From sequence record NC_025447.1: DNA of 64,000 nt; one strand, 5' to 3'. Below, one piece after another: positions 1 through 15,244 of the stretch. The position numbers were made by a program, and so were the translations under genes. Position 1 is the stretch's first letter. Each line of letters opens with the position of its first letter. Origin of the DNA: Escherichia phage 121Q. Under the pieces are notes generated by a model. The model saw only the letters and a program-made list of their open reading frames with translations, did not search any database and was not told where the DNA came from.

Positions 1-107
1 GAGGTTCAGATTTAAGAATGCTTCTCACCCTAGACACAGATTCCCAAGAGCGTTTTGTCAATGAGCACATTAGAGCACTTTTAATGGAAATTCAAAGTAA
101 ACTATGA
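1..107 (+). CDS. LGT-QE family small protein (5' partial, runs off window start)
   Basis: In-frame ORF to TGA at 105-107 overlapping next ATG; motif LTLDTDSQERFVNEHIRALL resembles the LGTxxQE core of downstream paralogs. Confidence 0.45.
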   Translation, partial: GSDLRMLLTLDTDSQERFVNEHIRALLMEIQSKL

Positions 108-319
108 AGGTAATATCAAACCAAGAGTACTTGGCACTATTCAGGAAGAATAATCACAAATATATGGCACTTGATTCAAGAACTGATATAAGTGAACTTG
201 AAAAAAATCTTTTGCGTTCAGAGATGATAGTACTGACACTCTTAGGAACACAGCATCAAGAAAGAACTGTTAATTCACACATAGAAATACTTAAGAAGCT
301 TATACAGGAAAAGTTATGA
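104..319 (+). CDS. LGT-QE family small protein
   Basis: 71 aa ORF; core LTLLGTQHQERTVNSHIEIL; ATGA coupling to both neighbours. Confidence 0.6.
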   Translation: MKVISNQEYLALFRKNNHKYMALDSRTDISELEKNLLRSEMIVLTLLGTQHQERTVNSHIEILKKLIQEKL

Positions 320-537
320 GAATCATAACACAACAAGATATTCTTAAGTTCACAAGGGTTCATGCATCTGAATTTGATGCTATATTATCAAAAAGTTACA
401 ACAACCCTTATACAGAAGATGTACACTACAATGAATTATGGGTGTATATACTTTTAGGTACAGATCATCAAGAGCAAGCCGTACAGAGGTATTTGAGTGC
501 TTTAAGTACTGCTACTGCTAATGGAGTATGTGTTTAA
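316..537 (+). CDS. LGT-QE family small protein
   Basis: 73 aa ORF; core YILLGTDHQEQAVQRYLSAL; start overlaps upstream stop. Confidence 0.6.
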   Translation: MRIITQQDILKFTRVHASEFDAILSKSYNNPYTEDVHYNELWVYILLGTDHQEQAVQRYLSALSTATANGVCV

Positions 538-781
538 TATGAAAGTACTATCTGAATTAGAAATGCATAATAGATTATACAAGTACTACCATTTACTTAA
601 ACCTATACAGAGGATTAAGTGTCCCTTTGAAGTGAAACAGGTTTTAATTTATGAGCATAAGTTCTTTGTATCATTAGGTACGAACCATCAAGAGTACTTT
701 TTGAAGTTGTACTTGATTACATTAATAGATTTAATTCACTATAAAACCAAACAAGCTAATAAAGAGAAATATGAAAACTAA
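521..781 (+). CDS. LGT-QE family small protein
   Basis: 86 aa ORF; core FVSLGTNHQEYFLKLY; alternative non-overlapping ATG at 539. Confidence 0.55.
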   Translation: MEYVFNMKVLSELEMHNRLYKYYHLLKPIQRIKCPFEVKQVLIYEHKFFVSLGTNHQEYFLKLYLITLIDLIHYKTKQANKEKYEN

Positions 782-1112
782 AATTCAACTCAGGGTATAC
801 ATATCGTATGAAAATATATACGTTAAAAGTAGTCTATGTAAAGATGTAATGGACTACAAAGGTAAACCATTCACAGTTACTTACAGTTTAACAGGAGGTT
901 TATATATCTCTTTTGCTAATTACGAAAATAATATGTACGAACACATTGACATTGAAGATTTAAGTACTTTATCACCAGAGGAATACTTTCAGGAATCATT
1001 AGTATGGGATTTAGAGTTTCCTATGCCATTAGTACATAAGATGATAGTACTAATGAAAGAATCTAAACAGGAGCCTAATGGTGATTATGAAGAACACATT
1101 ATTGAGTATTAA
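771..1112 (+). CDS. FQxS-core family protein
   Basis: 113 aa; C-terminal core SPEEYFQESLVWD shared with ~50 paralogs. Confidence 0.65.
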   Translation: MKTKIQLRVYISYENIYVKSSLCKDVMDYKGKPFTVTYSLTGGLYISFANYENNMYEHIDIEDLSTLSPEEYFQESLVWDLEFPMPLVHKMIVLMKESKQEPNGDYEEHIIEY

Positions 1113-1144
1113 GAGTTCTGATAGTACTGATAGTACAAATGTTC

Positions 1145-1173
1145 TTGACAGTACTTTTCATTACTGATATAGT
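1145..1173 (+). promoter_or_regulatory. sigma70-like promoter
   Basis: TTGACA, 17-nt spacer, TATAGT in intergenic gap upstream of 1203 ORF. Confidence 0.5.
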
Positions 1174-1202
1174 GCACCAACGTTAATCATAGGGTACAGA
1201 TT

Positions 1203-1448
1203 ATGTTAAAATTTTTAAATTTCCTTATCGTCTTGTGTATTGTTCTTGGAATTGCACCGTTTGTATTAGCGTATCTGGATTCAGATGAAATGCAGAAGAT
1301 GAATTGCACAAAGACAGGACAGAGTAGAGAAGAGACGGTTATGATGCCTGTAACGGTTATTGTGAATAACATACCAATTACGAACATGATTCCTACCCTA
1401 ACGACAACGTACCAGTACTCTTGTACAGATGGAGAGAGGTGGAGATGA
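1203..1448 (+). CDS. hypothetical small protein, hydrophobic N-terminus
   Basis: 81 aa ORF after promoter; N-terminal FLIVLCIVLGIAPFVLAYL looks like a TM helix; minus-strand ORF 1187-1387 judged a shadow. Confidence 0.4.
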   Translation: MLKFLNFLIVLCIVLGIAPFVLAYLDSDEMQKMNCTKTGQSREETVMMPVTVIVNNIPITNMIPTLTTTYQYSCTDGERWR

Positions 1449-1765
1449 AATTTAATATAGCAAAAACATCGAATGTATGTATATTTGGTTATGCAGATGA
1501 GTTAGGTGATATTGACATTCTTTTGTACAAAAAGGATGGTGTTATGCATTTCAAGTACCAGGATGAAGAGGCAGACAATTATCCTTTACCTAATTTAGTA
1601 CAAATGCAGGAAGAGGAATTATTCCAGTACAGCTTAGTATATGACATTGATATTTGCACGATGCCAGTACTAATTAATATTCAAAAAGTGATGCTCGATG
1701 TGTTTGATAGGCTAATACAAGGCACACAAGGAAGAACCATATATGTCAATGTACAAGACAATTAA
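1421..1765 (+). CDS. FQxS-core family protein
   Basis: core QEEELFQYSLVYD. Confidence 0.65.
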   Translation: MYRWREVEMKFNIAKTSNVCIFGYADELGDIDILLYKKDGVMHFKYQDEEADNYPLPNLVQMQEEELFQYSLVYDIDICTMPVLINIQKVMLDVFDRLIQGTQGRTIYVNVQDN

Positions 1766-1958
1766 TCAAGAATGGAAGACCCAAAAGTACAGGGAATTCA
1801 GTACTAGTTTAACAAAAGATGCATTGAATTTAAAAAGAACAGAGTTTGATATGTTTATTTTTCTTGGAACACGTTCACAGGAACAATACATTCATTATTA
1901 TATAAGTTCATTGCGAACGGAGATCGTATGCAAAACACAGGGTATTATAAAAAAGTAA
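1743..1958 (+). CDS. LGT-QE family small protein
   Basis: core FIFLGTRSQEQYIHYYISSL. Confidence 0.6.
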   Translation: MSMYKTINQEWKTQKYREFSTSLTKDALNLKRTEFDMFIFLGTRSQEQYIHYYISSLRTEIVCKTQGIIKK

Positions 1959-2194
1959 ACCAATATTTGTACGCTACAAAGTACAGGGATTTTTGTTTAA
2001 AGGGTGGTGATGAAGATTTTTCTTTGCGATTATCAGAATTTAATCTGTTATTTTATCTTGGTACATCGGAACAAGAAGAAATGGCACAGAAATTTATCAA
2101 GCACCTTGAACAAAAAATTCATATGCAAATTTTGATGCTTAAGGTACATAATGAGATAAACAAATATGAACCCAACAATAGTACAGGATCTTAA
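1928..2194 (+). CDS. LGT-QE family small protein
   Basis: core LFYLGTSEQEEMAQKFIKHL. Confidence 0.6.
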   Translation: MQNTGYYKKVNQYLYATKYRDFCLKGGDEDFSLRLSEFNLLFYLGTSEQEEMAQKFIKHLEQKIHMQILMLKVHNEINKYEPNNSTGS

Positions 2195-2552
2195 ACAAGT
2201 AATATTCCTTTTGAATACAAGAAGTGAATTGTATACAGAGTTAGAAGAGATTAATGCATTTTATCAGAATTTTGTAATTCAAGAGTTCAGTGATTTAATT
2301 ACAGATGCATTATTTGAATTCTCGGAGAAATACAAAGGAACAGAGTTCAGTGTTAAGAATGTTATTCGTCCAATTACAAGGAAAATTATATTATCACATT
2401 TTACATTTGACAATAAAGATTTATTCAGTCATAATCCAAGTACAGCTTTATATTTTATTCCTGATTCAGACAAAAATCATCCTATTCATTACGGATGGAT
2501 TTTGTCGTACATAGTACAAGGAAAGGAGTATCCTATTAAATGGAACGATTAG
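2166..2552 (+). CDS. hypothetical protein
   Basis: 128 aa ORF in gene-dense + strand array; no recognisable motif. Confidence 0.45.
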   Translation: MNPTIVQDLKQVIFLLNTRSELYTELEEINAFYQNFVIQEFSDLITDALFEFSEKYKGTEFSVKNVIRPITRKIILSHFTFDNKDLFSHNPSTALYFIPDSDKNHPIHYGWILSYIVQGKEYPIKWND

Positions 2553-2900
2553 GGCGATTAGATTATTACACAATTAATACAAATTATTTGTTGCGTAATA
2601 TAAAATCCGATTACAAAATATGGATAAAGAACAGAGATAGTATGTGTTATGAATTTTATTTAGATTATGCCATCAAACGCTTTTTAAGAGAAGAACATTA
2701 ATGCACACCACGCACACAGAGCACAAAAATACAAAAACGATAAATGTTTTAAATGATTCTTTATTGGTGAGTATAAATTTATATTATAAAATTCATTTAA
2801 ATGGTGGTATTGAAAATTTTAGTTATTATTTGAGTACAATATCGCAAGAGCATTTAATATACCAAGATCATTTATTGCACCCGAATCCATAAGGCAAATT

Positions 2901-3446
2901 ATGAATGATATAGAATTATTAGCACACAAGATTAGTACAATAATGCTTATCCTCAATAACAACCATCCTATATCGAAGATAGATGGAATCCTGAGTCAGA
3001 GGACAGGTGGTAGTTTATATTTGACATTAACAGAGGTTATCGCAAGGAATTACATTGATATTGAAATCGAGAACAGTGATGCATCAGGAAAGGTTGATGT
3101 AGGTGCATTAATCAGTTCAAATCCAGTATCAGCATCCCCATTGACCAAAGGTGTTAGTACAGGATTCGAAGGGTATTTGTGGTACAATACCAATGATGAT
3201 TATTTTATATATCAGCATTCCAATACAAATTATGATGAAGACAAATTTCAGTTCATAGACCCTTATGATGAAGCTGAAGTATTTCAAAAATCATTAATCA
3301 CAAAACCGCATGAGATGATGTATCTAATGTTATTCAGTACAATGCATTTGAATCCATTAATTAAAGGTTTAAAATTTTATATTCAATTGAATTTAGTCCA
3401 TGTAGTTTATGATTTATTAATGCAAGGATATAGTTATGAAGTATAA
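2901..3446 (+). CDS. FQxS-core family protein
   Basis: core DEAEVFQKSLITKP. Confidence 0.6.
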   Translation: MNDIELLAHKISTIMLILNNNHPISKIDGILSQRTGGSLYLTLTEVIARNYIDIEIENSDASGKVDVGALISSNPVSASPLTKGVSTGFEGYLWYNTNDDYFIYQHSNTNYDEDKFQFIDPYDEAEVFQKSLITKPHEMMYLMLFSTMHLNPLIKGLKFYIQLNLVHVVYDLLMQGYSYEV

Positions 3447-3753
3447 AATGCTTAATACAGTATCAGGGGTATATGTAGAATTAGAATCCGATTATTCAGA
3501 TGGATGGAATTTTATTAAACGACACGATAGAAATACATGGTACATGGCACATTTGGATAATGACGTAATAATAGATAATTTTGTCGATTTTAATACATTA
3601 TCAGAAGAAGAATTTTTCCAAATGCAATTTGTGCTTGATACAAATGGATTTGATTTGCTATTATTAAGGAATATTCAGAAAGCGGTTAATGAATTCATAA
3701 TCCAAAATAATTCAGGTAAAATGGGGATGTTCCATGATCTGGAAGTACAATGA
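3436..3753 (+). CDS. FQxS-core family protein
   Basis: core SEEEFFQMQFVLD. Confidence 0.6.
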   Translation: MKYKMLNTVSGVYVELESDYSDGWNFIKRHDRNTWYMAHLDNDVIIDNFVDFNTLSEEEFFQMQFVLDTNGFDLLLLRNIQKAVNEFIIQNNSGKMGMFHDLEVQ

Positions 3754-4291
3754 AATTCAGTACACCTACGCTAATGCAATCCTTATGGGACAAAAGTTAG
3801 CTTGTATTGTTGCAGCCTTATATAATGCCCAGAAATATCACAAGCGTCATTTCCACAAATGTATTGGTATTATTCCATCGAAGTACAATACATATATTGC
3901 GTGCACGAGTCATTTTGATAAACGATTCAATACACCTGATACCCCAAATGCCAGTAGTGTTATTGGTCTTTTGGATTTCGCACCTGGTGCTGTTATTGGA
4001 AAGAATGATTTAGAGTACACATGGTATAATAAAAATGCCCCGTTAGTAATGGTAAAATATGATACAGAAACGAATAAAACAATAGAGTACAATACATATA
4101 AATCAGAGGAAGAATTTTTCCAAGGTTCATTGCTTGTGCCAGTGCGTTTGTTGTTTTATAATGTCCTTATTAGTACAGTACACAATAGTCCATTACACAA
4201 GAATCACAAAATTAATTTCAATTTTTGTGCTTATGCGATTGATGGTGTGTATGAGTGTTTAATGGAGGTATTGAGTTATGAAGCTGAATAA
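3734..4291 (+). CDS. FQxS-core family protein
   Basis: core SEEEFFQGSLLVP. Confidence 0.6.
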   Translation: MIWKYNEIQYTYANAILMGQKLACIVAALYNAQKYHKRHFHKCIGIIPSKYNTYIACTSHFDKRFNTPDTPNASSVIGLLDFAPGAVIGKNDLEYTWYNKNAPLVMVKYDTETNKTIEYNTYKSEEEFFQGSLLVPVRLLFYNVLISTVHNSPLHKNHKINFNFCAYAIDGVYECLMEVLSYEAE

Positions 4292-4619
4292 TACATTTGA
4301 TATTAATAAGTTAAGAGAATGGTTTTATAGTATTGAAATTGAAGCCATCCCGTATCATAGATATGAACAATATAATTTAACCAGTATTGATATCAGTGAG
4401 TTGTACGCGTATTATCAAAGTGCATTAGAGATGCATAAGTTATTTTTGAGTACAGATTTTGTTCTAAATTACAATTTTGAGGAATTTAATAATTATAATT
4501 TAGTACAGAAATATGTAGTAGCAAAGTATATGTACCTTCAAGGAATTACAAGTAATTTGGAATTCAATACAGTCCTTGCTTTAGTTGAGGTAATTTTATG
4601 CAGTACATGTATGATTTAG
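4278..4619 (+). CDS. hypothetical protein
   Basis: 113 aa ORF, overlaps neighbours by a few nt; no family motif seen. Confidence 0.45.
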   Translation: MKLNNTFDINKLREWFYSIEIEAIPYHRYEQYNLTSIDISELYAYYQSALEMHKLFLSTDFVLNYNFEEFNNYNLVQKYVVAKYMYLQGITSNLEFNTVLALVEVILCSTCMI

Positions 4620-5104
4620 AGTTCAGCTTAGATGCTGCATTTAAATATGTTCACAAGATAGAAACAATATACAGTACATTATGTGCAATACAATCAGTAT
4701 CATCTGAGTTTGATGTTGGTGAAAAATATCAGGTATGGAATAATACATTTCTAAACAAAGAACGTTGCTCTACGGGGTTTAATATTTTAACATTTAATCC
4801 CAGCAATTGTTACCCAGAGAAGCATGAACGTTATCCGAATGACGACATGTGGTTTGATTACACAAAAGATGGTGATATGTCATCCCTTGTAGTTCCTGAT
4901 GATTTTAATGCCGAAGATTTAACGGAAGAGTGGTGGTTTCAACAGAATTTAGTACACGATGATATTGATTTATTTTTTTATGTAGTATTTAAAATGCTTT
5001 ACCACAACAATATATTAAAAGATAGTGTGTTTTTTTCATGTCTATATATTGATGATTTGTACAATGAAATCCAAATCAACATTCCCAGCACGCCTGTATC
5101 GTAA
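4598..5104 (+). CDS. FQxS-core family protein
   Basis: core TEEWWFQQNLVHDD. Confidence 0.6.
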   Translation: MQYMYDLEFSLDAAFKYVHKIETIYSTLCAIQSVSSEFDVGEKYQVWNNTFLNKERCSTGFNILTFNPSNCYPEKHERYPNDDMWFDYTKDGDMSSLVVPDDFNAEDLTEEWWFQQNLVHDDIDLFFYVVFKMLYHNNILKDSVFFSCLYIDDLYNEIQINIPSTPVS

Positions 5105-5129
5105 GATATGGGCTTTTTTCGTTTTGGTA

Positions 5130-5158
5130 TTGACAAAGAAGTGCAAAGCTGTTATCAT
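5130..5158 (+). promoter_or_regulatory. sigma70-like promoter
   Basis: TTGACA, 17 nt, TATCAT upstream of AAGGAG RBS. Confidence 0.5.
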
Positions 5159-5186
5159 GTGTAATCATTTTAAAGGAGAACATATA

Positions 5187-5687
5187 GTGAGTTTCATAAT
5201 CCCAAGTACATACGAAGATGCATCAAGTGCAGTTCATAAGATTCATTATATTTTTAATTTAATTATTAGATCTGCAAAAATTAAAATGTATGCACCTCTT
5301 GTGACAAATAATCGAAATGAAGAAATTTTTATTAGCACAGACAAAATTATTTTTCCATATTTCAATGAAGATAGATTGTGGTTCATACATTTAGCTGCAT
5401 TACAAAAATATAAGATGTCAATTCGTAATAATTTGGTTATACCGTTATATCATCCCGATATTGGAGAGGATGAGTATTTTCAGTACAGCACAGTACACCA
5501 CCATGAAGATATCTTTGCTGCTATGCTTATTGCTAAATTGAACACCGTTGATTTGGAGCAGTACAAATACAATAATAAATCATGTAAGATCATAATCCCT
5601 GCATTCATAGCTCTTTATGATTATGTGGTGCATAACAAAAAAGATGATACATATGCTTTCAATGAAGAGTATTTGAATTTTTTTTAA
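5187..5687 (+). CDS. FQxS-core family protein (GTG start)
   Basis: AAGGAG 8 nt upstream of in-frame GTG at 5187; core GEDEYFQYSTVHHH; ORF-track start at 5025 would run through the promoter. Confidence 0.55.
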   Translation: MSFIIPSTYEDASSAVHKIHYIFNLIIRSAKIKMYAPLVTNNRNEEIFISTDKIIFPYFNEDRLWFIHLAALQKYKMSIRNNLVIPLYHPDIGEDEYFQYSTVHHHEDIFAAMLIAKLNTVDLEQYKYNNKSCKIIIPAFIALYDYVVHNKKDDTYAFNEEYLNFF

Positions 5688-5696
5688 GGAGAACAT

Positions 5697-6224
5697 ATGA
5701 GCAGTGACGTGCAGAAATCAATGACATTCAATGAAATTGGTGCATTTAAAGATAAGATCATTGATTGTCTTGAATACATGATTTGTAGTAATATCGAAAG
5801 TATCGAGATATTTAACAAGACAAATCGCTCTTACCATATGATGTACATTGCAAACAATAATGGTATCATTCCATTTATTTCGGATAGTACAATATGGTAC
5901 GCATGTGATACGAAAAAAACCACAATAGGTTTACATTTATTTGAGACACATTATGATCTAATTATTCCTGAACATTGTATGCAAGAAGAAGAATATTTTC
6001 AAATGCAATGTATACATTCACCATTAGTGTTGTTTAGTTTATATATTATACCTTATATCACCAAATGTGTTCATGAGAATAAAGCTCCGTGGAATCATGA
6101 ATTTGTATCGTTGAAGTTATTGTATAATGTATTAGTAGAATATTATGATTACAGGCACAATGGTACAATCAGTGATGTATGGGATTTTGAATCGCTAAGG
6201 GTGAAAACATACACAGGTGAATGA
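5697..6224 (+). CDS. FQxS-core family protein
   Basis: AAGGAG RBS; core QEEEYFQMQCIHSP. Confidence 0.65.
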   Translation: MSSDVQKSMTFNEIGAFKDKIIDCLEYMICSNIESIEIFNKTNRSYHMMYIANNNGIIPFISDSTIWYACDTKKTTIGLHLFETHYDLIIPEHCMQEEEYFQMQCIHSPLVLFSLYIIPYITKCVHENKAPWNHEFVSLKLLYNVLVEYYDYRHNGTISDVWDFESLRVKTYTGE

Positions 6225-6840
6225 TATGACCAGAATTAAAATGTATGATTTGATGCAGTACAGTAAAATTGCCATTCCAGTGCTTAATAAAGTGCTGGAT
6301 GCATTCATTGCCAAATACCCTGAGAATTCAGTGTTATGTATTCCATTTAGTGTTCCAGATAAAGATGATATATTCCAAGTGAATGTCAGTACACGTGGTA
6401 TTACATTGCAGCAGAAATACATGGATACGGAATATTATGGAATAAAGTTGGATTCAGTACAGGGTTCAAAATCAGCCTATGATTTTTTTGTTCCTAATAA
6501 TATAGAGTCATGGGAAACAAACATTTCAAAGAAAGATGAAAATGATGTTCCTATTAGTGGTGTGTTCAACAATAAAGTTTTTTATTATTACGAAACCGAC
6601 AAATTCCCTGAAGAGTTATATTACAATTCAGAAATGAGTGAGGATATAGATGCATTCATGTTTCAATTATCTTTAGTACATGATATCATTGATGTTCAAG
6701 AGTTAAGAGCAGAAATCAATTTAGCTAAAGAGTTATCGGACATGCTGCCACCGTTTAGTATGCTTTTTTGTGAAGGAGGTTATTTTTCAAAAGAAGTGTT
6801 TGAACATTTCGTAGATGTTGTAAAAGGGTTGGATATATAG
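6217..6840 (+). CDS. FQxS-core family protein
   Basis: core DIDAFMFQLSLVHD. Confidence 0.6.
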   Translation: MNDMTRIKMYDLMQYSKIAIPVLNKVLDAFIAKYPENSVLCIPFSVPDKDDIFQVNVSTRGITLQQKYMDTEYYGIKLDSVQGSKSAYDFFVPNNIESWETNISKKDENDVPISGVFNNKVFYYYETDKFPEELYYNSEMSEDIDAFMFQLSLVHDIIDVQELRAEINLAKELSDMLPPFSMLFCEGGYFSKEVFEHFVDVVKGLDI

Positions 6841-6841
6841 T

Positions 6842-7036
6842 ATGCTTATAATTGATATTAAACAAAAATACCGTAAGTTTGATTGGTTCACCGATAGTTT
6901 CCAGCTTGAATTATTACATATGAATATCAGTGAAACATTATGTGCAGAAACACAAGATGAATTTGATGATAGAGTGATGAACATAGTAATGCTTTCTTGC
7001 TTTAAACATTTTGGTTATTTTTTCGGACAGAATTGA
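6842..7036 (+). CDS. hypothetical small protein
   Basis: 64 aa ORF tightly following upstream stop. Confidence 0.4.
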   Translation: MLIIDIKQKYRKFDWFTDSFQLELLHMNISETLCAETQDEFDDRVMNIVMLSCFKHFGYFFGQN

Positions 7037-7045
7037 GGTAAAAAA

Positions 7046-7899: not shown

Positions 7900-7909
7900 G
7901 GAAAGTACA

Positions 7910-8461: not shown

Positions 8462-8615
8462 TTTTGTGATGGGATGATGCTAATGAAAGAGTTATTTGAA
8501 GATCAGTTCAATACATATGTGGATAATATTCTTTATTCCAGTCGTGCCAGTCAACGAGGAAATCGTGCTTACAATATTGATTACCTATTGGTGGTGCTGA
8601 GTTCACAGTACACCA

Positions 8616-8846
8616 ATGCGGTACAAAGGGTTTATTATGAAAAGTGCAAGTAATAGTGATATTGCAAAGGAGAAGTTTAAGTGCAGTTTAGATTACGGTT
8701 TAAATGATTTTCTTACATGCACAATGTACAGGAATGATGATTATGAGCAATCCGTAATTTCGTTGCACAGATATTTCGAAATAATTTACGCAAGATATCT
8801 TAGAAGGTTAGAGGGAATAGGGGATTGGAATTATGATTACGTTTGA
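8616..8846 (+). CDS. hypothetical small protein
   Basis: 76 aa ORF; start uncertain (alternative ATG at 8637). Confidence 0.4.
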   Translation: MRYKGFIMKSASNSDIAKEKFKCSLDYGLNDFLTCTMYRNDDYEQSVISLHRYFEIIYARYLRRLEGIGDWNYDYV

Positions 8847-9069
8847 AGAACCAGAAACAATGAGTCCATATACGATGAAAGGTTTTGAATTCATGATGGA
8901 TTCGATTTTGAAGAATTCGTGTTTAGTACACAATCCTGAGCGTGCAACAGTGAGGGAATATCAGGACAATGCATTACAGCGTGTAATGAATATGTACAGG
9001 AATACGAGTCGCAAGCTTTGTGCGTTGAAAAGGATTGAAGAAATCAAGGTTTCTAGGCTGAATAAATAG
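8833..9069 (+). CDS. hypothetical small protein
   Basis: 78 aa ORF overlapping upstream gene end. Confidence 0.4.
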   Translation: MITFEEPETMSPYTMKGFEFMMDSILKNSCLVHNPERATVREYQDNALQRVMNMYRNTSRKLCALKRIEEIKVSRLNK

Positions 9070-9268
9070 AGACGTTTCATTTTGACAGGCCGCAGGGGGG
9101 GTCAAAAAAATTTCCGCTGAAAAACATGCTAAGGTATATGTTTAATATAAAGTTTTATATTGTGTTTTTCAGAGTACAGTTCATGTTTCCTGAAACAAAA
9201 AAAATACCCCGCCACCGAACGTGCTCTTTATATTGGAGTTTACCTTATTAATTATAGTAGAGATTAAG

Positions 9269-9646
9269 ATGGAAATAAAATATAATGAATTTTGTGCAAG
9301 GACATGGATGTACACTGGTGAGTTAGTTACGCACTCTAACTTATACAAGGGTGATTTAAACTACGCCAGGGACAAGATTTTAAAGTACTGGAATGCTGAC
9401 TTTTATTTGATGGATTTTAGTACTGGGTTTAGGGGTAAAGCAACCGAGATGTTGGACTATACAGTACTTGATGATGCTGCACTGTTTCAGGAGGCATTAG
9501 TATTTGATAAGAAGTACATCTGTACATTAGAAGAGATGATTGAATTACAGCGTAGAATTAAATGTATTCACAGGGAATGTATAGATATCTGGTGCAGTAC
9601 TGGTGAAGATAATTTTTGTAATCATTTCAATCTAGGGGAAGTGTGA
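9269..9646 (+). CDS. FQxS-core family protein
   Basis: ATG at 9269 (ORF-track start 9221 is GTG with no RBS); core DDAALFQEALVFDKKYICT nearly identical to 10235 and 10588 genes. Confidence 0.55.
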   Translation: MEIKYNEFCARTWMYTGELVTHSNLYKGDLNYARDKILKYWNADFYLMDFSTGFRGKATEMLDYTVLDDAALFQEALVFDKKYICTLEEMIELQRRIKCIHRECIDIWCSTGEDNFCNHFNLGEV

Positions 9647-9870
9647 TGGAATTTGATTTTTTAATATCAGTACATACGGTCAAGGGTGCACCTCAGTACC
9701 TTTGTAATTTAAACAAAGGTGATTTGATTATGGATACAGATACAGAGGTTGTATACAGTTCTAATGTTCTGTGCAAGGAATTTCAGAATTCGAAAATGCT
9801 TGAGTTATTGTGCATTGCTGATTGTAATATTCTGTACAAATTCAGTACTAATCTGAAGGAGATTTTATGA
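9643..9870 (+). CDS. truncated FQxS-family paralog (N-terminal module only)
   Basis: N-terminus MEFDFLISVH...CNLNKGDL matches the 10235 gene but the ORF ends before the FQxS core. Confidence 0.45.
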   Translation: MMEFDFLISVHTVKGAPQYLCNLNKGDLIMDTDTEVVYSSNVLCKEFQNSKMLELLCIADCNILYKFSTNLKEIL

Positions 9871-10235
9871 AAAAAGAAATTAGAATCCAATTCGGTATGA
9901 GGAAAAAAGAGGTCATCTGTACACTGAATCATGCGGACGTGGAAATGGGTGGTGCATTACAAAAATTCTCACATTTTGTTCTTGTACTATATGAAAATGG
10001 GTCTTTTAAAATCTTCACATATGATGATTCAAAAAATTACCGTAATGATTTTGTAAATCTTACAGTACTGTCAGAAGAGGAATTCTTTCAGGAAAGTACT
10101 GTCTGGAATTTACAAGGAGCACCAATTGAATACGTCCGTGCTACACAGGTAGAGATGATCAAAACAATGCAGAACTATCCAGAAGATTATATGACTAAGT
10201 TTCATGAATCTTTTAATGTAGAGGTTGAGTACTGA
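9867..10235 (+). CDS. FQxS-core family protein
   Basis: core SEEEFFQESTVWN. Confidence 0.6.
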   Translation: MKKEIRIQFGMRKKEVICTLNHADVEMGGALQKFSHFVLVLYENGSFKIFTYDDSKNYRNDFVNLTVLSEEEFFQESTVWNLQGAPIEYVRATQVEMIKTMQNYPEDYMTKFHESFNVEVEY

Positions 10236-10591
10236 TGGAATTTGATTTTTTAATATCAGTACATTCTTTTAAGCACAGTTTTCAGTACTTTTGTAATTTA
10301 AACAAAGGTGATTTAATGCACAGTGCGAATGAGTATATTCATTTTACTGATGGTAAATTCTCATTTATTGATTACAGTTCATTAGATTTTCCATACACTG
10401 ATATGCCGGACTATACATTGATGGATGCTGGTGAACTATTTCAAGCTGCATTAGTATTTGACAAGAAGTACATCTGTACATTTGAAGAAGTAATTACTAT
10501 ACAAAATGAAATGAAGGTGTATGCATCGTTGAATAAACCTAATGAATGTATTAATCAAGAATACAAATTCAATATAGGAATTCCAAAATGA
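10235..10591 (+). CDS. FQxS-core family protein
   Basis: core DAGELFQAALVFDKKYICTFEE. Confidence 0.6.
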   Translation: MEFDFLISVHSFKHSFQYFCNLNKGDLMHSANEYIHFTDGKFSFIDYSSLDFPYTDMPDYTLMDAGELFQAALVFDKKYICTFEEVITIQNEMKVYASLNKPNECINQEYKFNIGIPK

Positions 10592-10947
10592 CATATGATT
10601 ATTCTATGTACTATTATAAGTTACCTAAAGGATGGGACTTGTGCTGTAATCTTATTAAGGGAGACTCGGAACATGAGTTGAGTTTATATATGCACTACAA
10701 AGATTCTTGTTTTAAATTTATTCATGTATTACATGATGGCTATGACTATGAATCTGAGAGTCTTATAGATTATACAGTACTGGACGATGGTGAACTATTT
10801 CAGGAAGCATTAGTGTTTGATAAGAATAAGTACTCCTGTACATTTGAAGAAATGGTTTCTTTGCAAAATGAAATGAAGAGATTTGAAAAAGAAAACGTAT
10901 TTAATCCATCCCCATCAAGAACGAATAATTATTATTTCAATATATGA
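10588..10947 (+). CDS. FQxS-core family protein
   Basis: core DDGELFQEALVFDKNKYSCTFEE. Confidence 0.6.
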   Translation: MTYDYSMYYYKLPKGWDLCCNLIKGDSEHELSLYMHYKDSCFKFIHVLHDGYDYESESLIDYTVLDDGELFQEALVFDKNKYSCTFEEMVSLQNEMKRFEKENVFNPSPSRTNNYYFNI

Positions 10948-10956
10948 GATTATAAA

Positions 10957-11451
10957 ATGACATTACAGAGTTCATTGGAAAAAGCAAAGAAGATTCATGA
11001 GTACATGAATATGGTAAAAGAAGGTTCAGTTTACGGTGTTTTCAAAGACACAAGTACTCAATATTATGTGCCAGATAACCTCCTTTATAATGACTGCTCA
11101 GATACAGAAACGTGCGTACTGGATACAGAAACGTGTGTACTGGATACCGACCCTAATGATTATGAATGTTTCATTGATATGCATAATGAGTACATGGTCT
11201 ATATTAATGATGCAGATATTACCATATACAGTACTGACTGCGATTCCGATGACATTATAATTCCGAGTGAAGTACTAGAAGGTCAGTGGGATAGTGAAGA
11301 GTATTACTTCCAACAAAGTACTGTTTACGATGATGAAGTACTTGATGTTATTATAATTATGTGGTACTTTAAAAGTATTGGTTCTGGGAACTTCTATTTC
11401 GATTACAAATACGTAAAGAAAACTGTAGATAACGGTATTAACAGGTGTTGA
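10957..11451 (+). CDS. FQxS-core family protein (tandem subfamily copy 1)
   Basis: N-terminus MTLQSSLEKAKKIHEYM and C-terminus SEEYYFQQSTVYDDEVLDVIIIMWYFKS; contains in-frame 21-bp tandem repeat. Confidence 0.65.
   Translation: MTLQSSLEKAKKIHEYMNMVKEGSVYGVFKDTSTQYYVPDNLLYNDCSDTETCVLDTETCVLDTDPNDYECFIDMHNEYMVYINDADITIYSTDCDSDDIIIPSEVLEGQWDSEEYYFQQSTVYDDEVLDVIIIMWYFKSIGSGNFYFDYKYVKKTVDNGINRC
11101..11142 (+). repeat. 2 x 21-bp tandem direct repeat inside a CDS
   Basis: gatacagaaacgtg[c/t]gtactg twice, encoding DTETCVL DTETCVL. Confidence 0.7.
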
Positions 11452-11452
11452 A

Positions 11453-11923
11453 ATGAGTTTAGAAAGAGCATTAGAGATTGCGAAGTTAATTGATTTATGC
11501 AGCAAAGAAATTGTATCAAATTGTCTCAATGGATATCTATTCAAGGAAGGTAAATCATATTGTCGAATGATATACGATGACAGTAGTGAATATATCCATA
11601 TGTATGAAGAAAACTTAGATTCTTCTGAAACAACACTCAATGGGTGTGATGTTAATTTGGAAGATAATTACATGTACTTCTGTCGTGATGCTGATATTTT
11701 AATACAAGATTCTGACATTCTAACTGGTGGTGAAGAGAAACATCTTCCGTATTCAGTACTGGATAATAACTGGGGTAGTGAAGATTACTATTTCCAGCAG
11801 AGTACTATATATAATGAAGATATACTTGACAAACTTGTTATTTCTTGGTACTTTCATAACACGGATTATAGTAGCTTCTACATAGACTTGGATCTACTAA
11901 GAGTACTTAAAGAGGATATATGA
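11453..11923 (+). CDS. FQxS-core family protein (tandem subfamily copy 2)
   Basis: core SEDYYFQQSTIYNEDILDKLVISWYF. Confidence 0.65.
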   Translation: MSLERALEIAKLIDLCSKEIVSNCLNGYLFKEGKSYCRMIYDDSSEYIHMYEENLDSSETTLNGCDVNLEDNYMYFCRDADILIQDSDILTGGEEKHLPYSVLDNNWGSEDYYFQQSTIYNEDILDKLVISWYFHNTDYSSFYIDLDLLRVLKEDI

Positions 11924-12360
11924 GTTTAGAAAAAGCACTAGAACTAGCCAACAAAATACATCAGTACCATGATAAAATAAAAAGTGGGTTCTATGCTGAT
12001 AAAGTACATGCATATGGGAATGAATATTACCTCACTGGAGTAAAGAGATACTCTAATGATATTTTACTTATGGGTCATGATAAAGACAATAATATACAGT
12101 ACTCTTCATGTAGTCAATATACTAGTTTTATGGTATATATTCCTGGTACTAAGATTACTTTTGACACATCAAATACACCTGTTGACTTCGAGGTACTTGA
12201 TGGCCCGTGGGGTACTGAAGAGTATTACTTCCAACAGAGTCTCATTTTTAACCAAGAAATGCTTGATTCCTTGGTTGTGTTGTGGTACTTTAAGGAATTG
12301 AATTTTGAACCATTCTTTCTTGACTGGGGATCATGTGAGTATTTAATTTCAGGGGAATAA
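11920..12360 (+). CDS. FQxS-core family protein (tandem subfamily copy 3)
   Basis: core TEEYYFQQSLIFNQEMLDSLVVLWYF. Confidence 0.65.
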   Translation: MSLEKALELANKIHQYHDKIKSGFYADKVHAYGNEYYLTGVKRYSNDILLMGHDKDNNIQYSSCSQYTSFMVYIPGTKITFDTSNTPVDFEVLDGPWGTEEYYFQQSLIFNQEMLDSLVVLWYFKELNFEPFFLDWGSCEYLISGE

Positions 12361-12362
12361 TA

Positions 12363-12851
12363 ATGTCATTACAAAGTGCGTTGAAAGAAGCAAAGAAGAT
12401 TCATGAGTACATGATTATGGTACAGGAAGGTTCAGTACCAGGTGTATACAAAACATCAGATACGGAATTCTTCGTTAAGGATAGAGATGATTATGACGAT
12501 TCAGAGGTATGTGCAGAAACATTAGTACTGCACACTGATACTGGTGACAGTGATAACTGTGAATATCATATGTACAATCAGTACATTAGTTATTGCCGTA
12601 ATGAAGATATTACCATCTACAACACAGATAGTGATGCTGATGACACTATCATTCCTTATTCAGTTCTGGAAGGTCAGTGGGATAGTGAAGAATATTACTT
12701 CCAGAATAGTACTATCTACAATGAAGAAGAACTGGATGTTATTGTGATTATGTGGTATTTCAAAAGTATTGACTCCAGTAGTTTCTATTTTGATTATGAA
12801 TATGTAGAGAATACAGTAGGAGAAGGTAATGTCATTACAAAGTGCTCTTGA
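12363..12851 (+). CDS. FQxS-core family protein (tandem subfamily copy 4)
   Basis: N-terminus MSLQSALKEAKKIHEYM; core SEEYYFQNSTIYNEEELDVIVIMWYFKS. Confidence 0.65.
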   Translation: MSLQSALKEAKKIHEYMIMVQEGSVPGVYKTSDTEFFVKDRDDYDDSEVCAETLVLHTDTGDSDNCEYHMYNQYISYCRNEDITIYNTDSDADDTIIPYSVLEGQWDSEEYYFQNSTIYNEEELDVIVIMWYFKSIDSSSFYFDYEYVENTVGEGNVITKCS

Positions 12852-13281
12852 AAAAGCAAAAGAACTACATGGATACTTTGAAGATATAAAGGCCGGAAAG
12901 TTCAAAGAAGTGTACAAAGCCGAGAACGGTAACTACTACAAAGATGAAATGTATAATAACTCCGTTGGTGTAAGGGTTATTCTTGGGTTGAATTCCAATA
13001 GCCCAGTGTCGTATTCGGAATACAATAGAGATGCAGAATTCATTAGTTATGTTGAAAATGGTAGCATTCGTTTTATTAATAGACAAAAACCATTAACATT
13101 GAATTGTGAAGTACTGAATGGTCCGTGGAATAGTGAAGAGTATTACTTCCAAAACAGTACTGTATATGATGATGAAGTACTTGAAGCATTAGTTATTATG
13201 TGGTACTTCAAGAGTGTTAGCTGTCCTCGATTTTATTTGGATTTCGAAGATCTTCGTAAAGTACCAGAAGGTATAGAATGA
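12829..13281 (+). CDS. FQxS-core family protein (tandem subfamily copy 5)
   Basis: core SEEYYFQNSTVYDDEVLEALVIMWYFKS. Confidence 0.65.
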   Translation: MSLQSALEKAKELHGYFEDIKAGKFKEVYKAENGNYYKDEMYNNSVGVRVILGLNSNSPVSYSEYNRDAEFISYVENGSIRFINRQKPLTLNCEVLNGPWNSEEYYFQNSTVYDDEVLEALVIMWYFKSVSCPRFYLDFEDLRKVPEGIE

Positions 13282-13592
13282 AAAACTTATTCAGTGTTCA
13301 GTACGTTCCTGGTGAAATTGGTTTATTGTATCTATTTGACCATGATAATTCATTATTACTAGTAGTGAAGAAATGCCAAGCTAGTTCGTTTGTTGAATAC
13401 ATTCACGATAGTGAATACATTCCTGATTTCCTAGAGTGTGATTATCACGATGAACATGAATCATTTATTTTTCAGGAATCACTCGTATGGGATAAATCGA
13501 TCAACTTCTTTACGTTAATTGAATTACAAAAGCAGGTGAAGTATTATTGGGATTACTTAATTACACAGGATTACATTGAGATTGAAACATAA
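13278..13592 (+). CDS. FQxS-core family protein
   Basis: core HESFIFQESLVWD. Confidence 0.6.
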   Translation: MKNLFSVQYVPGEIGLLYLFDHDNSLLLVVKKCQASSFVEYIHDSEYIPDFLECDYHDEHESFIFQESLVWDKSINFFTLIELQKQVKYYWDYLITQDYIEIET

Positions 13593-13900
13593 TGACAAAA
13601 AATGAATTTGATTCACTTTGTACGGTTTATAATTCATTGACAGAAATACCTGACTTTATTAATTACATTTCAGCTTTAAATCAAATTATGAATAGTTTTG
13701 AACAATCGTTTGAAGAGAAATATGCAGGTAGAAAAGTTCTATGTCATATGTCAATGTACTTGGGAGATGGTGAGCCTTACACTACCAGTACTACATGTGA
13801 AATAAAAAAATATAATATATTATTGGGCACAATAGAATTCACAGTATCCAATGGTGGTAGTTATATGTACTTTAGAGATGGAGTGGTTGAATTATTATGA
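13592..13900 (+). CDS. KYxG-V family small protein
   Basis: 102 aa; EEKYAGRKVLCH motif shared with small proteins at 45-49 kb. Confidence 0.5.
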   Translation: MTKNEFDSLCTVYNSLTEIPDFINYISALNQIMNSFEQSFEEKYAGRKVLCHMSMYLGDGEPYTTSTTCEIKKYNILLGTIEFTVSNGGSYMYFRDGVVELL

Positions 13901-14346
13901 GTTACGAAAGTGCAATCAAGAAAGCAAATGATATTCTAAAAGTTGTTCAGTTCTTCAAAGAAAATCCTGAATACTTAGCTGATGAAAACCATGATCACGA
14001 TGAGAGATTGAGACGAAAAATTGTCGCTTTATTTGACACTAATGCGGATAATTATAGTCTAATTGAGTTAGCATACGATTATATTTCATTGAACCGAAAC
14101 GGACATTTAGTTAATATAGAAAGACATGCGAGTGAAGAATCTTTTAAAATTTCAGACATTTTATCCCTGAGTACTGAAGAAGGGTACTTCCAGGGTAGTA
14201 CTGTTTATGAACAAGGAACACTTGACAATCTATGCACATTCAGTGTAATATATCAGAAATCAGTACTGGATGTATTTTATCTTGACACTGCTGAACTGGA
14301 TACACTAATCAATTTTGTTACTACTGAAGAGGCCACATTTGAGTGA
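13897..14346 (+). CDS. FQxS-core family protein
   Basis: core TEEGYFQGSTVYE. Confidence 0.6.
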   Translation: MSYESAIKKANDILKVVQFFKENPEYLADENHDHDERLRRKIVALFDTNADNYSLIELAYDYISLNRNGHLVNIERHASEESFKISDILSLSTEEGYFQGSTVYEQGTLDNLCTFSVIYQKSVLDVFYLDTAELDTLINFVTTEEATFE

Positions 14347-14879
14347 TGAAAGTTAACATCAATGACTTTGATGCATTACAAGATTTATCAAAAAAGATTC
14401 GCATAATCGTACCAGTACTCAAAAAATGCAGTACTGGTTTAATTGATCCTAGTACTGTTGTTAATGAGAAGTACAATTTTCATCGTGTATTACAGGGTAC
14501 AGGTGCATTTCAGAAGTGTGATGTACGTGAGAAACACGTAATTGATACATCATTGTTTTCTATTGGTGCACCTGTGTCGAATAATTCTATTTTCCTGGAT
14601 AACGCAGGAAATATTCAACAATTAACATTTAAGAAAAGGAAAAAGAACAATAACATTGGTGTGTACGCGATGAAGTGGGGTCAACCTGATTTGAAGCGTG
14701 AAATTCACATCCCTAAGTACAATTACAATGCATTTGACGAACAGTGTTTTCAACTATCGTGTACTGACCCTGACTATGCAATCATTCAGTTCTATATGGA
14801 ATTGCAGATAGCATTTAACAGTAATTTATATATTAACTTGTTGGCAATGAACATCGATGAAGTATTCAAAAACATTTAA
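14343..14879 (+). CDS. FQxS-core family protein (divergent)
   Basis: core DEQCFQLSCTDPD. Confidence 0.5.
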   Translation: MMKVNINDFDALQDLSKKIRIIVPVLKKCSTGLIDPSTVVNEKYNFHRVLQGTGAFQKCDVREKHVIDTSLFSIGAPVSNNSIFLDNAGNIQQLTFKKRKKNNNIGVYAMKWGQPDLKREIHIPKYNYNAFDEQCFQLSCTDPDYAIIQFYMELQIAFNSNLYINLLAMNIDEVFKNI

Positions 14880-15075
14880 TCGAATTGAATACATGAGAAC
14901 TGTGAGTGCAGTGTGGGACATATGGTTCACTACTAAACCAAAAATGGATTACCATGACTTTAAGCTCTTGTTCTTCGTTGGCTCTAACAAACAGGATGTT
15001 GCAATGAAGGGTTATATTCAGCACTTACAGGAACTAATACAGAAGAGGGTTAATGAAAATAATAGACCAAGATGA
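14857..15075 (+). CDS. LGT-QE family small protein
   Basis: core LFFVGSNKQDVAMKGYIQHL. Confidence 0.55.
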   Translation: MKYSKTFNRIEYMRTVSAVWDIWFTTKPKMDYHDFKLLFFVGSNKQDVAMKGYIQHLQELIQKRVNENNRPR

Positions 15076-15244
15076 TATTGCTAAACTATTCAATATATAT
15101 TCTACTAGAATGATGCAAACAGACTCATATAGTACTGAATTCAAAGAGTTGAAAGTACTGATGTACTTGGGAACCCAATATCAGGAACAAGTTATTTTGG
15201 AATATATTAATTCGTTGAAGAAGGATATCCGTTATGTACGATGA
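15053..15244 (+). CDS. LGT-QE family small protein
   Basis: core LMYLGTQYQEQVILEYINSL. Confidence 0.6.
   Translation: MKIIDQDDIAKLFNIYSTRMMQTDSYSTEFKELKVLMYLGTQYQEQVILEYINSLKKDIRYVR

Follow-up and report, generated by a model that had tools for sequence, protein, structure and literature searches.

Short LGTxxQE proteins of a jumbo coliphage form a lineage-specific, tandemly duplicated family with a predicted three-helix fold

Introduction

Why does a jumbo coliphage carry many adjacent copies of one very small gene, and what might the products do? We address this question at a 64,000-nucleotide stretch (hereafter, the window) that is part of an Asteriusvirus genome, that of a PBECO4/121Q-like jumbo coliphage. 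A preliminary description of the window named eight short ORFs whose ~70-aa products share a hydrophobic residue followed by LGTxxQE and an amphipathic segment. It took them for a paralogous family that it did not recognise, occurring as tandem pairs or triplets interleaved with genes of a second family carrying an FQxS motif. A function has yet to be assigned to about 83% of Asteriusvirus genes (reported for phAPEC6). The LGTxxQE family makes up roughly 5% of the gene count, its locus is among the most variable between isolates, and Asteriusvirus phages have been proposed as therapy against pathogenic E. coli.

Results

The eight ORFs belong to PHROG 4148

Membership was assessed with a non-circular HMM, namely one built from 24 paralogs of the related genome CRJP21, all upstream of the region equivalent to the window. 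All eight ORFs are present on the + strand:

1..107, + strand: 3' end of a family member, 34 codons plus stop, cut by the window edge (frame-3 translation); HMM E 1.4e-10
104..319, + strand: family member, 71 aa, LLGTQHQE; phrog_4148 E 2.9e-21; AF2 pLDDT 95.6
316..537, + strand: family member, 73 aa, LLGTDHQE; phrog_4148 E 8.3e-22; HMM E 3.2e-10
539..781, + strand: family member, 80 aa, SLGTNHQE, final gene of the large array; phrog_4148 E 1.9e-21
1743..1958, + strand: family member, 71 aa, FLGTRSQE, upstream gene of an outlying pair; phrog_4148 E 4.1e-9; HMM E 2.5e-12
1928..2194, + strand: family member, 88 aa including a C-terminal tail, YLGTSEQE, downstream gene of the outlying pair; phrog_4148 E 3.6e-4; HMM E 6.4e-7
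14857..15075, + strand: family member, 72 aa, FVGSNKQD, the most deviant motif; phrog_4148 E 4.7e-4; HMM E 7.6e-7; AF2 pLDDT 94.0
15053..15244, + strand: family member, 63 aa, YLGTQYQE; phrog_4148 E 4.4e-17; HMM E 4e-11

The HMM picks exactly these eight out of 923 six-frame ORFs, with E values from 5.7e-18 to 7.6e-7 and a next best value of 0.38. The pattern [LVIMF]G[TS]xxQ[ED] also has eight matches in the six-frame translation of the window; mononucleotide shuffles average 0.27 and never exceed 2. Seven of these are named ORFs, and the remaining one, at 61410, is a non-member by the HMM. In ORF 1-107, frame 3 reads ...LLTLDTDSQERFVNEHIRALLMEIQSKL up to the stop codon, with Asp in place of Gly (motif variant DTDSQE). 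Its orthologues are CRJP21 gp74 and the L003 gene 9787-10002, and the full-length form is found in L001 and L003. ORF 104-319 is 100% identical to 121Q_339 (P0009). The longest form of the fourth ORF would start at 521, but a start at 539 (MKVLSELE) is more likely because it fits the family N-terminus MKxL[ST] and is the start annotated in CRJP21; the phrog_4148 alignment begins at residue 7 of the longer form.

All seven complete window ORFs (E 8e-22 to 5e-4) and the members from Klebsiella phage RaK2 match phrog_4148 over nearly the full length of its HMM; the E values of members from RaK2 and the uncultured contig L002 are 1e-17 to 2e-4. Together with a common predicted fold (see below), these matches indicate that the ORFs are true members of a paralogous family, whose ~70-aa proteins have the LGTxxQE core followed by an amphipathic helix. 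The family has no name, as the preliminary description implied, but it is already recorded as PHROG 4148. That entry has no name, fold, function or array description, and the literature searched contains nothing on the family; Pfam, NCBIfam and the PDB likewise hold no description of it. Matching clusters number only 84 among 1.84 billion representatives. On these sequence comparisons, the eight ORFs are members of a lineage-specific multigene family of RaK2-like jumbo myophages, and we place high confidence in this identity and in the anatomy described below.

The family forms a large tandem array at the edge of the terminal repeat

ORFs 1-781 are the final four genes of a 25-28-gene tandem array extending upstream of the window. 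The pairs or triplets of the preliminary description are therefore a window-edge artefact for this first group, while the outlying pairs 1743-2194 and 14857-15244 stand. The window holds eight members, but a genome carries at least 20-32. Specifically, CRJP21 has 28 tandem genes plus 2 plus 2 (32 members within 32 kb), and the count is 25 + 2 in L003 (97% identity with the window) and 20 in JNE01. The array itself comprises 28, 25 and 17 genes in three genomes.

The array begins at the inner edge of the left direct terminal repeat (DTR) of ~21 kb. In vB_Ec-M-J, where the DTR measures 21,525 bp, the array match begins at 21,599. In fEgEco12, whose DTR of 20,993 bp was confirmed by PhageTerm and restriction digests (PMC13070987), it begins at 21,669.

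The genes are tightly packed. In the CRJP21 array, 23 of the 27 junctions overlap, 11 of them as ATGA, and the codons of the C-terminal I-R/K-S-K-L (AGGAGTAAACTATGA) encompass both the Shine-Dalgarno sequence and the start codon of the gene that follows. In the window, ORFs 104-319 and 316-537 each have an ATGA overlap with the preceding gene, ORF 1928-2194 overlaps its predecessor by 31 nt and has GGAG upstream, and ORF 15053-15244 overlaps its predecessor by 23 nt. A Shine-Dalgarno-like AAGGAAG lies upstream of ORF 1743-1958. Judged from these junctions, the overlapping genes of the array are probably translationally coupled.

The family is found in Asteriusvirus, Alcyoneusvirus and at least one uncultured relative. 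Related genomes have 20-32 members each, mostly in one tandem array; RaK2 has 13 members in 40 kb and L002 at least 15. Identity between paralogs is 17-56%, and for 30 of the 32 CRJP21 paralogs the best match lies within their own genome, often in the adjacent gene. Between genomes that are ~96% identical, three genes are present or absent and two are swapped in order, with orthologue identity of 72-100%; nucleotide coverage of the CRJP21 array over 34 Asteriusvirus genomes ranges from 3 to 100%. Head-to-tail paralogs and variation in copy number and content among close genomes, both seen here, are marks of a tandem lineage-specific multigene family. In Asteriusvirus, local tandem duplication enlarged the family to an array of 17-28 mostly overlapping genes.

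Members are predicted three-helix bundles

The AF2 model of ORF 104-319 is a three-helix bundle, with helices at residues 6-24, 31-46 and 52-70. The most deviant member, ORF 14857-15075, has an equal helix layout, so that structure prediction, which the preliminary description had proposed, yields one fold for both. The models contain only two single-residue bridges as beta content. Members of the family are thus modelled as soluble three-helix bundles of ~8-10 kDa.

In these models, the LGTxxQE motif is most simply read as the helix 2/helix 3 junction, structural rather than an active site. Specifically, Gly and Thr would lie in the short connection, Thr (or Ser) would form a beta-bridge to residue 2 of the N-terminus, and Gln-Glu would open helix 3, while the downstream [IL]xxLxxxI would be the buried face of helix 3. 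Conservation among 84 representatives follows this layout, with Q52 in 84, G48 in 79, T49 in 78 (plus 5 Ser), L63 in 78 and E40 (E or D) in 81; the hydrophobic a/d positions and the N-terminal pattern M-K-x-L-T/S-x-x-E-Y are also conserved. Exposed positions have an entropy above 3.3 bits in the same representatives, and paralogs range in pI from 4.5 to 9.9 and in net charge from -8 to +8. Because the conserved residues lie at the junction and on buried faces, they appear to build the scaffold, while exposed helix faces and net charge vary among paralogs. K2, T5, E8, E40, T49, Q52 and E53 are conserved and polar; they are expected to lie together at a single pole of the bundle, where they could form a common functional site instead of having a purely structural role.

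Family genes are under purifying selection

For 26 orthologue pairs, the pooled Nei-Gojobori dN/dS is 0.33 (dS 0.124), compared with 0.23 for neighbouring genes, and the family genes are under purifying selection. The ratio nears 1 in just 2-3 genes. A value of 0.33 denotes constraint; positive selection is what would usually be expected of arms-race binders.

The extreme divergence of the paralogs and the frequent gain and loss among closely related genomes might suggest that the ORFs are dispensable relics, i.e., neutrally drifting or selfish tandem duplicates, or non-coding repeats that stay open by chance. We regard this as very improbable. Synonymous changes are well in excess, the fold-defining residue pattern is kept across genera, and a shallow alignment suffices for very high AF2 confidence. 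Moreover, the start/stop overlaps and Shine-Dalgarno sequences are maintained, and four arrays contain no frame-breaking copies, save one possible fusion (P0001).

Resemblance to helix-turn-helix proteins is limited

A second alternative is that the family is a stripped-down helix-turn-helix (HTH), possibly derived from the alpha1/alpha2-loop-alpha3 core of an OmpR/PhoB-type winged helix, and that its members are small DNA- or RNA-polymerase-binding modulators of host or phage transcription. The OmpR/PhoB pattern (Trans_reg_C, PF00486) ..LL...WGTN....E/D.TV..HI..L..KL resembles the family pattern E..LL..LGTN.Q--E..V..YI..L, and on inspection the family N-terminus L-T-x-x-E-Y resembles L-T-x-x-E-F, the start of OmpR-family alpha1. 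Weak but repeated profile hits point in the same direction: the DNA-binding region of NCBIfam AdeR (OmpR family) matches window 104-316 with E 0.025, the SarA family matches window 1928-2191 with E 0.006 (NCBIfam) and 0.05 (Pfam), and Pfam SpoIIID (E 4e-4) and HTH_26 are matched by one and two of 86 members, respectively. When the family was aligned by hhalign to 99 PhoB DNA-binding domains, a PhoB-only template (Neff 2.1) chosen post hoc, family positions 33-68 fell on alpha2-loop-alpha3 (P 7e-4, probability 26%, 36 columns).

However, none of the 86 members matches Trans_reg_C even at E up to 10, no curated cut-off is reached by any of them, and a profile search of PDB sequences to E 10 turned up no response regulator. 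Searches for classical HTH proteins (Cro/C1, SpoIIID, SarA) gave neither an above-threshold HMM match nor an HTH fold match, and fold searches gave no winged-helix match. The AF2 models have neither a C-terminal beta-hairpin wing nor an N-terminal four-stranded sheet; in their basic form the proteins end 0-3 residues past helix 3 and therefore have no wing. The spacing of elements also differs from that of the OmpR/PhoB winged helix, and net charge in the would-be recognition segment (49-62) averages -1.33, the segment being acidic in 75% and basic in 8% of the 84 representatives. The span of whole-protein pI likewise counts against this alternative. A DNA- or polymerase-binding HTH therefore seems an unlikely account of the family.

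Relationship to the FQxS genes

The LGTxxQE family is distinct from the FQxS family (hhalign probability 0.3%), and the interleaving of the two is correct within the window, where ORF 14857-15075 sits amid FQxS genes. The co-occurrence in other phages that the preliminary description asked about was also found, in RaK2 and in an uncultured relative. The LGTxxQE proteins might accordingly be dedicated partners of the adjacent FQxS proteins (chaperones, adaptors, inhibitors or immunity-like factors), the two forming one system. The families co-occur in three of three lineages examined, with eight LGTxxQE and at least 19 FQxS genes in the window, 13 and 13-16 (by HMM or motif) in RaK2, and at least 15 and three in L002; the outlying LGTxxQE pairs are flanked directly on both sides by FQxS genes, with overlap between the reading frames. 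Neither family is detected in the syntenic 48 kb from an Eneladusvirus genome (best E 0.2 for LGTxxQE and 0.04 for FQxS). In contrast, no FQxS genes interrupt the main array, a continuous block of 25-28 genes, and there is therefore no one-to-one pairing. The copy ratios are far apart (15:3 in L002, 13:16 in RaK2), fusions of the two families are absent among the database matches listed, and co-occurrence may merely mirror a common location in one variable early region. We consider a dedicated partnership improbable.

Promoter-like sites and virion data

One further feature of the window is relevant to expression:

1145..1173, + strand: sigma-70-like promoter consensus match, TTGACA-17-TATAGT with TG, within the 1113-1202 intergenic gap

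From its match to the consensus, this site is a candidate early promoter for a unit including the pair 1743-2194. Promoter-like sites overall are not enriched in the window (84, versus 102.5 in shuffles). The best + strand sites fall in rare intergenic gaps, and promoter-like sites lie in the gaps that precede the array and the first pair.

Mass spectrometry detected 62 proteins in the phAPEC6 virion. No family member is among them, and none has a mass of 7-10 kDa or lies between gp347 and gp549, although small proteins give few peptides and are easily missed. The phAPEC6 family member P0193 is gp481c. The literature searched yielded no Asteriusvirus transcriptome and no proteome of infected cells.

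Discussion

Our preferred reading, to which we give about an even chance as a whole, is that the family comprises non-structural proteins made early, which duplication has diversified so that they bind different targets in the host. Early transcription would be by the host RNA polymerase, starting at sigma-70-like promoters, as suggested by the consensus matches, the gene orientation and analogy with other phages. The proteins would be a set of small binders, each for another host (or phage) macromolecule, with roles in host takeover, anti-defence or host range. The binding function itself, which we infer from anatomy, is put forward tentatively.

A more specific version, which we offer as speculation, is that the array is a library of ~20-30 'affibody-like' three-helix binders on one scaffold, each with its own target, a host protein or an anti-phage defence system, and all supplied from the genome end by one early operon whose genes are translationally coupled. 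Host range would then be tuned, from one Asteriusvirus isolate to another, as array members are gained, lost or replaced. In a variant of this proposal, the conserved pole (N-terminus and GT..QE junction) would dock a common partner and the variable faces would choose the targets.

Comparable arrangements are known. The MGF110/360/505 families of ASFV and the Bcl-2-like alpha-helical families of poxviruses are tandem paralogs near terminal repeats whose copy number and content vary by isolate, and they turn divergent surfaces on a conserved small scaffold against host functions. The likeness is one of working only, with no sequence or demonstrated structural relationship and a bacterial host here, and for the array a host-interaction role is a proposal. 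The SPO1 gp37-60 module, the T5 pre-early genes and the Twort-like Tre genes are host-takeover clusters in or next to long terminal repeats. Like them, the array may be seen as a collection of numerous short genes, packed closely in one orientation at the end of the genome, with sigma-70-type promoters (candidates here) and products that are not virion components. Unlike them, it lies just inside the repeat rather than within it and consists of 25-28 paralogs of one family, whereas those clusters hold mostly unrelated genes. Bacillus phage G has a ~35-copy zinc-ribbon family that is a lineage-specific expansion (Iyer et al. 2021, PMC7824862). There too, one jumbo phage genome holds dozens of copies of a very small domain whose function is merely guessed, but the family described here is all-helical, has no metal ligands, belongs to another phage lineage and has its copies in a single, probably translationally coupled tandem array next to the terminal repeat.

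Should the proteins prove to be binders for host interaction or anti-defence, the array would be a compact, experimentally tractable source of new inhibitors and a candidate host-range determinant. Even otherwise, it is a clean natural case of a minimal helical scaffold diversifying via tandem duplication in a phage, and its fold is predicted well enough for structural and binding screens to be straightforward.

LGT genes in the window

Over its first 16 kb, the window aligns with jumbo coliphages of the genus Asteriusvirus (PBECO4/121Q/G17 group). Of these, vB_EcoM_CRJP21 matches best, with 95.4% identity and 100% query coverage; in this genome all genes beneath the match are annotated 'hypothetical protein' and ~25.6-89.6 kb is the counterpart of the window. 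A metagenome contig, L003 (ENA ERZ27268763), is 97% identical to the window, which starts at the equivalent of L003 position 9896. The window is AT-rich (GC ~32%). GC skew is above zero in every 2-kb bin of 1-64000, with cumulative skew climbing monotonically, and the + strand carries the gene-like ORFs of the first 16 kb as well as every CRJP21 gene annotated in the corresponding 32 kb. Window 1-64000 yielded no tRNA genes.

The eight short ORFs that the preliminary description placed in a family with an LGTxxQE core (1-107, 104-319, 316-537, 521-781, 1743-1958, 1928-2194, 14857-15075 and 15053-15244) are all present as described. ORF 1-107 is the 3' end of an LGT gene cut by the window edge, and the third complete ORF probably starts at 539, not 521. 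The pattern [LVIMF]G[TS]xxQ[ED] occurs eight times in the six-frame translation of the window versus 0.27 times expected from shuffles. Consistent with the claimed homology, a non-circular HMM, built from 24 CRJP21 paralogs upstream of the region covered by the window, singles out exactly these eight from the 923 ORFs of the six-frame set, at E 5.7e-18 to 7.6e-7 with the next-ranked ORF at 0.38, and an HMM search of the remaining 49 kb gave no additional member.

Each of the seven complete ORFs has a match to phrog_4148, a group annotated 'unknown function'. Searches of Pfam (with 7, 32 and 86 members) and NCBIfam gave no above-threshold match and no recurrent family except scattered weak helix-turn-helix (HTH) matches. 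One matched protein, P0067, is labelled 'DUF3885 domain-containing protein' in UniRef, but Pfam does not reproduce this and the label was judged spurious. In literature searches, the motif, the PHROG identifier and jumbo-phage multigene families all yielded nothing specific; the family is catalogued but undescribed. The authors of the Klebsiella phage RaK2 genome went no further than noting that ~10% of its proteins are paralogues (PMC3622015).

Distribution of the LGT family

A word-indexed search with LGT proteins gave matches only to unnamed proteins that lack a Pfam domain and are encoded on ~350-kb contigs of E. coli or Salmonella phage type. When 1.84 billion cluster representatives were searched exhaustively by HMM, only 84 clusters reached E <=1e-3. 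The family nevertheless extends beyond Asteriusvirus. Specifically, RaK2 (Alcyoneusvirus) has 13 members in a 40-kb stretch, as singles, pairs and triplets among genes of the FQxS family, another expanded family. L002, a 9-kb contig of an uncultured relative with only 6-12% nucleotide coverage by known phages at ~70% identity, has at least 15 members and three FQxS genes. In an Eneladusvirus genome, the syntenic stretch (48 kb) contains no LGT members. Given this distribution, the interspersed arrangement looks ancestral and the large array looks like a later expansion.

A tandem array next to the terminal repeat

CRJP21 carries 28 consecutive LGT genes (gp50-gp77; L001 2625-8781, on the CRJP21 stretch) and, beyond them, the two outlying pairs also seen in the window, a total of 32 members within 32 kb. 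In L003, which ends short of the second pair's position, there are 25 array genes and the first outlying pair; of the 20 members in the divergent species JNE01, 17 belong to the array. The preliminary description had the genes in tandem pairs or triplets. The two outlying pairs stand, but ORFs 1-781 are not a triplet: because the window start lies inside this array, they are its final four genes, as comparison with CRJP21 and L003 shows.

Neighbouring genes of the CRJP21 array overlap at 23 of the 27 junctions, in 11 cases by ATGA; gaps occur at only four. The frequent C-terminus I-R/K-S-K-L* is encoded by AGGAGTAAACTATGA (CRJP21 array, L001 2625-8781; window 92-107 and 304-319), within which lie the Shine-Dalgarno sequence and the start codon of the LGT gene that follows. 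Together, the overlapping junctions and AGGAGTAAACTATGA suggest polycistronic, translationally coupled expression. Since these codons also supply the signals for initiating the following paralog (ribosome-binding site and start codon), a constraint from translational coupling may explain part of the apparent protein conservation at the C-terminus.

The direct terminal repeats of fEgEco12 and vB_Ec-M-J are 20,993 bp (experimentally supported) and 21,525 bp, respectively (PMC13070987), and array matches start at 21,669 in fEgEco12 (PP777464) and 21,599 in vB_Ec-M-J (OQ718158). The array therefore adjoins the left direct terminal repeat (~21 kb) on its inner side, at a distance of ~0.1-0.7 kb, with its genes directed away from the genome end. 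A conserved gene upstream of the array, the homologue of CRJP21 gp48, is present in two copies in records that include both repeats. Also upstream, by ~4.4 kb, an 84-aa gene (L003 564-818) has a precomputed Pfam ParE_like (PF24732) match, which suggests toxin-like genes in the terminal-repeat region.

Promoter-like sites overall are not enriched. Two strong sigma-70 matches, 5' of the array and 5' of the first-pair unit, occupy rare intergenic gaps:

L001 2567-2594: strong sigma-70 consensus match in the intergenic gap just ahead of the array
Window 1145-1173: strong sigma-70 consensus match in the gap before the unit with the first outlying pair, the best such site of the region
Window 1203-1448: 81-aa ORF with hydrophobic N-terminal segment MLKFLNFLIVLCIVLGIAPFVLAYL, directly 3' of the site at 1145-1173 and 99% conserved in CRJP21 and L003

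Because MLKFLNFLIVLCIVLGIAPFVLAYL is strongly hydrophobic, the product of 1203-1448 is probably a membrane or secreted protein.

Predicted structure of LGT proteins

The AlphaFold2 model of the window 104-316 protein (pLDDT 95.6, pTM 0.78) contains three helices, residues 6-24 (with a kink at 16), 31-46 and 52-70, and a beta-bridge between residues 2 and 49. The most deviant member, 14857-15072 (VGSNKQD), is predicted with the same elements (pLDDT 94.0). Among 84 representatives, Q52 is conserved in 84, G48 in 79, T49 in 78 (plus five Ser), L63 in 78 and E40 in 81 (E or D), and hydrophobic character is kept at L43, L47, V56, Y59, I60 and I67. Exposed positions on all three helices have entropy >3.3 bits, and pI ranges from 4.5 to 9.9. 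Mapped onto the model, this conservation places LGTxxQE at the predicted junction of helix 2 and helix 3, clasped to the N-terminus. Within the N-terminal consensus M-K-x-L-T/S-x-x-E-Y, T/S5-x-x-E8 fits an N-capping box of helix 1. An assignment of Thr49 as the N-cap (capping box) of helix 3 was revised, as DSSP opens helix 3 at Gln52 and puts Thr49 in the beta-bridge.

The weak HTH matches raise the possibility that the family is a remote HTH offshoot, which would concern its origin and not its function. Sub-threshold matches are to the AdeR/OmpR family (E 0.025), SarA (E 0.006-0.05), SpoIIID (E 4e-4, one of 86 members) and HTH_26 (two of 86). When the family profile was compared by hhalign with one made from 99 real PhoB DNA-binding domains, LGT 33-68 fell on PhoB alpha2-loop-alpha3 (P 7e-4, probability 26%). 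Against membership or DNA binding, the wing and N-terminal sheet of the OmpR/PhoB domain are missing from the LGT models, Trans_reg_C is matched by none of the 86 members, the fold-search matches listed include no significant HTH match, and 75% of members are acidic in the segment that would serve for recognition. We regard an HTH origin as improbable.

Domain fusions gave no clue to function: neither two word-index searches nor the exhaustive search gave an LGT fusion to a known domain. Three members have an extra ~55-aa C-terminal domain, and one protein fuses two LGT units:

L007 (RaK2 stretch) 9170-9535: RaK2 ORF362, with the C-terminal extension
L007 12814-13161: RaK2 ORF372, with the C-terminal extension
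L002 8470-8838: P0182, with the C-terminal extension
L006 371-835 (3-kb metagenome contig, ENA ERZ28596934): P0001, 154 aa, two adjacent LGT units fused, homologues of CRJP21 gp70 and gp71

The extension follows the pattern …GGYE.YKF.V…E[ES].E[EK]A….K.NNY…, has no Pfam or PHROG match and is a possible functional clue. P0001 may be a natural fusion or the product of a frameshift or assembly error.

Evolution of the paralogs

LGT paralogs share 17-56% identity, and for 30 of the 32 the best hit is in the same genome, often the adjacent gene. DNA repeats between them comprise only the motif (20-45 nt, 60-86%) and a few neighbour pairs (~75%), which rules out recent duplication or gene conversion. 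Because best hits are so local and DNA similarity so restricted, the duplications are taken to be tandem events of old date.

Between CRJP21 and L003, orthologues are 72-100% identical in amino-acid sequence (dS 0-0.44) with flanks ~96% identical, and the two genomes differ in the presence of three genes and in the order of two. Across 34 Asteriusvirus genomes, coverage of the CRJP21 array ranges from 3 to 100%. Pooled dN/dS is 0.33 for LGT orthologues versus 0.23 for neighbouring genes, and overt positive selection is not seen at this pooled CRJP21-L003 scale. As judged by these comparisons, LGT genes are constrained coding genes with mosaic turnover. The family is another case of lineage-specific expansion, a kind already known in jumbo phages, such as the zinc ribbons of phage G (PMC7824862).

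Possible function

The phAPEC6 particle proteome (62 proteins) contains nothing of 7-10 kDa and nothing between gp347 and gp549; one LGT member is gp481c. It is solidly established that the LGT family is real, narrow in distribution and expanded in tandem, and that its products are small non-virion proteins with a predicted three-helix fold, in which conserved residues build the scaffold and the surfaces vary; we are highly confident of its identity and anatomy. By analogy, its position, orientation, promoter-like sites, operon structure and scaffold-versus-surface pattern tentatively point to early-expressed binders, which would have diversified against different host targets and might serve host takeover, anti-defence or host range.

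The neighbouring FQxS family

The preliminary description called for a check of co-occurrence, and LGT and FQxS genes are found together in all three lineages (Asteriusvirus, RaK2 and the uncultured relative). Homology between them was ruled out (hhalign probability 0.3%). A one-to-one partnership is unlikely, because the main array is a pure LGT block and LGT:FQxS copy ratios differ between lineages.

By HMM, at least 19 FQxS members can be recognised in window 771-29183 (e.g. 771-1112, 1421-1765, 9867-10235 and 10957-13281), and the family has no Pfam match; there are 13-16 copies in 40 kb of RaK2, and it is also found in L002. Its core, [ED]-E-[YFL]-F-Q-x-S-[LT]-[VI], superficially resembles a TEV-type protease site (E-x-x-Y-x-Q/S). 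The FQxS block also contains:

Window 5092-5113: terminator-like hairpin and T-run, 17 nt before a sigma-70-like match at 5130-5158 (TTGACA-17-TATCAT with TG)

Hairpin and promoter match (5092-5158) may form a transcription-unit boundary within the block. At 10957-13281, five consecutive FQxS paralogs (164, 156, 146, 162 and 150 aa), all starting MSL[EQ][KRS]AL and containing EEYYFQ[QN]S, constitute a tight tandem sub-family inside the group.
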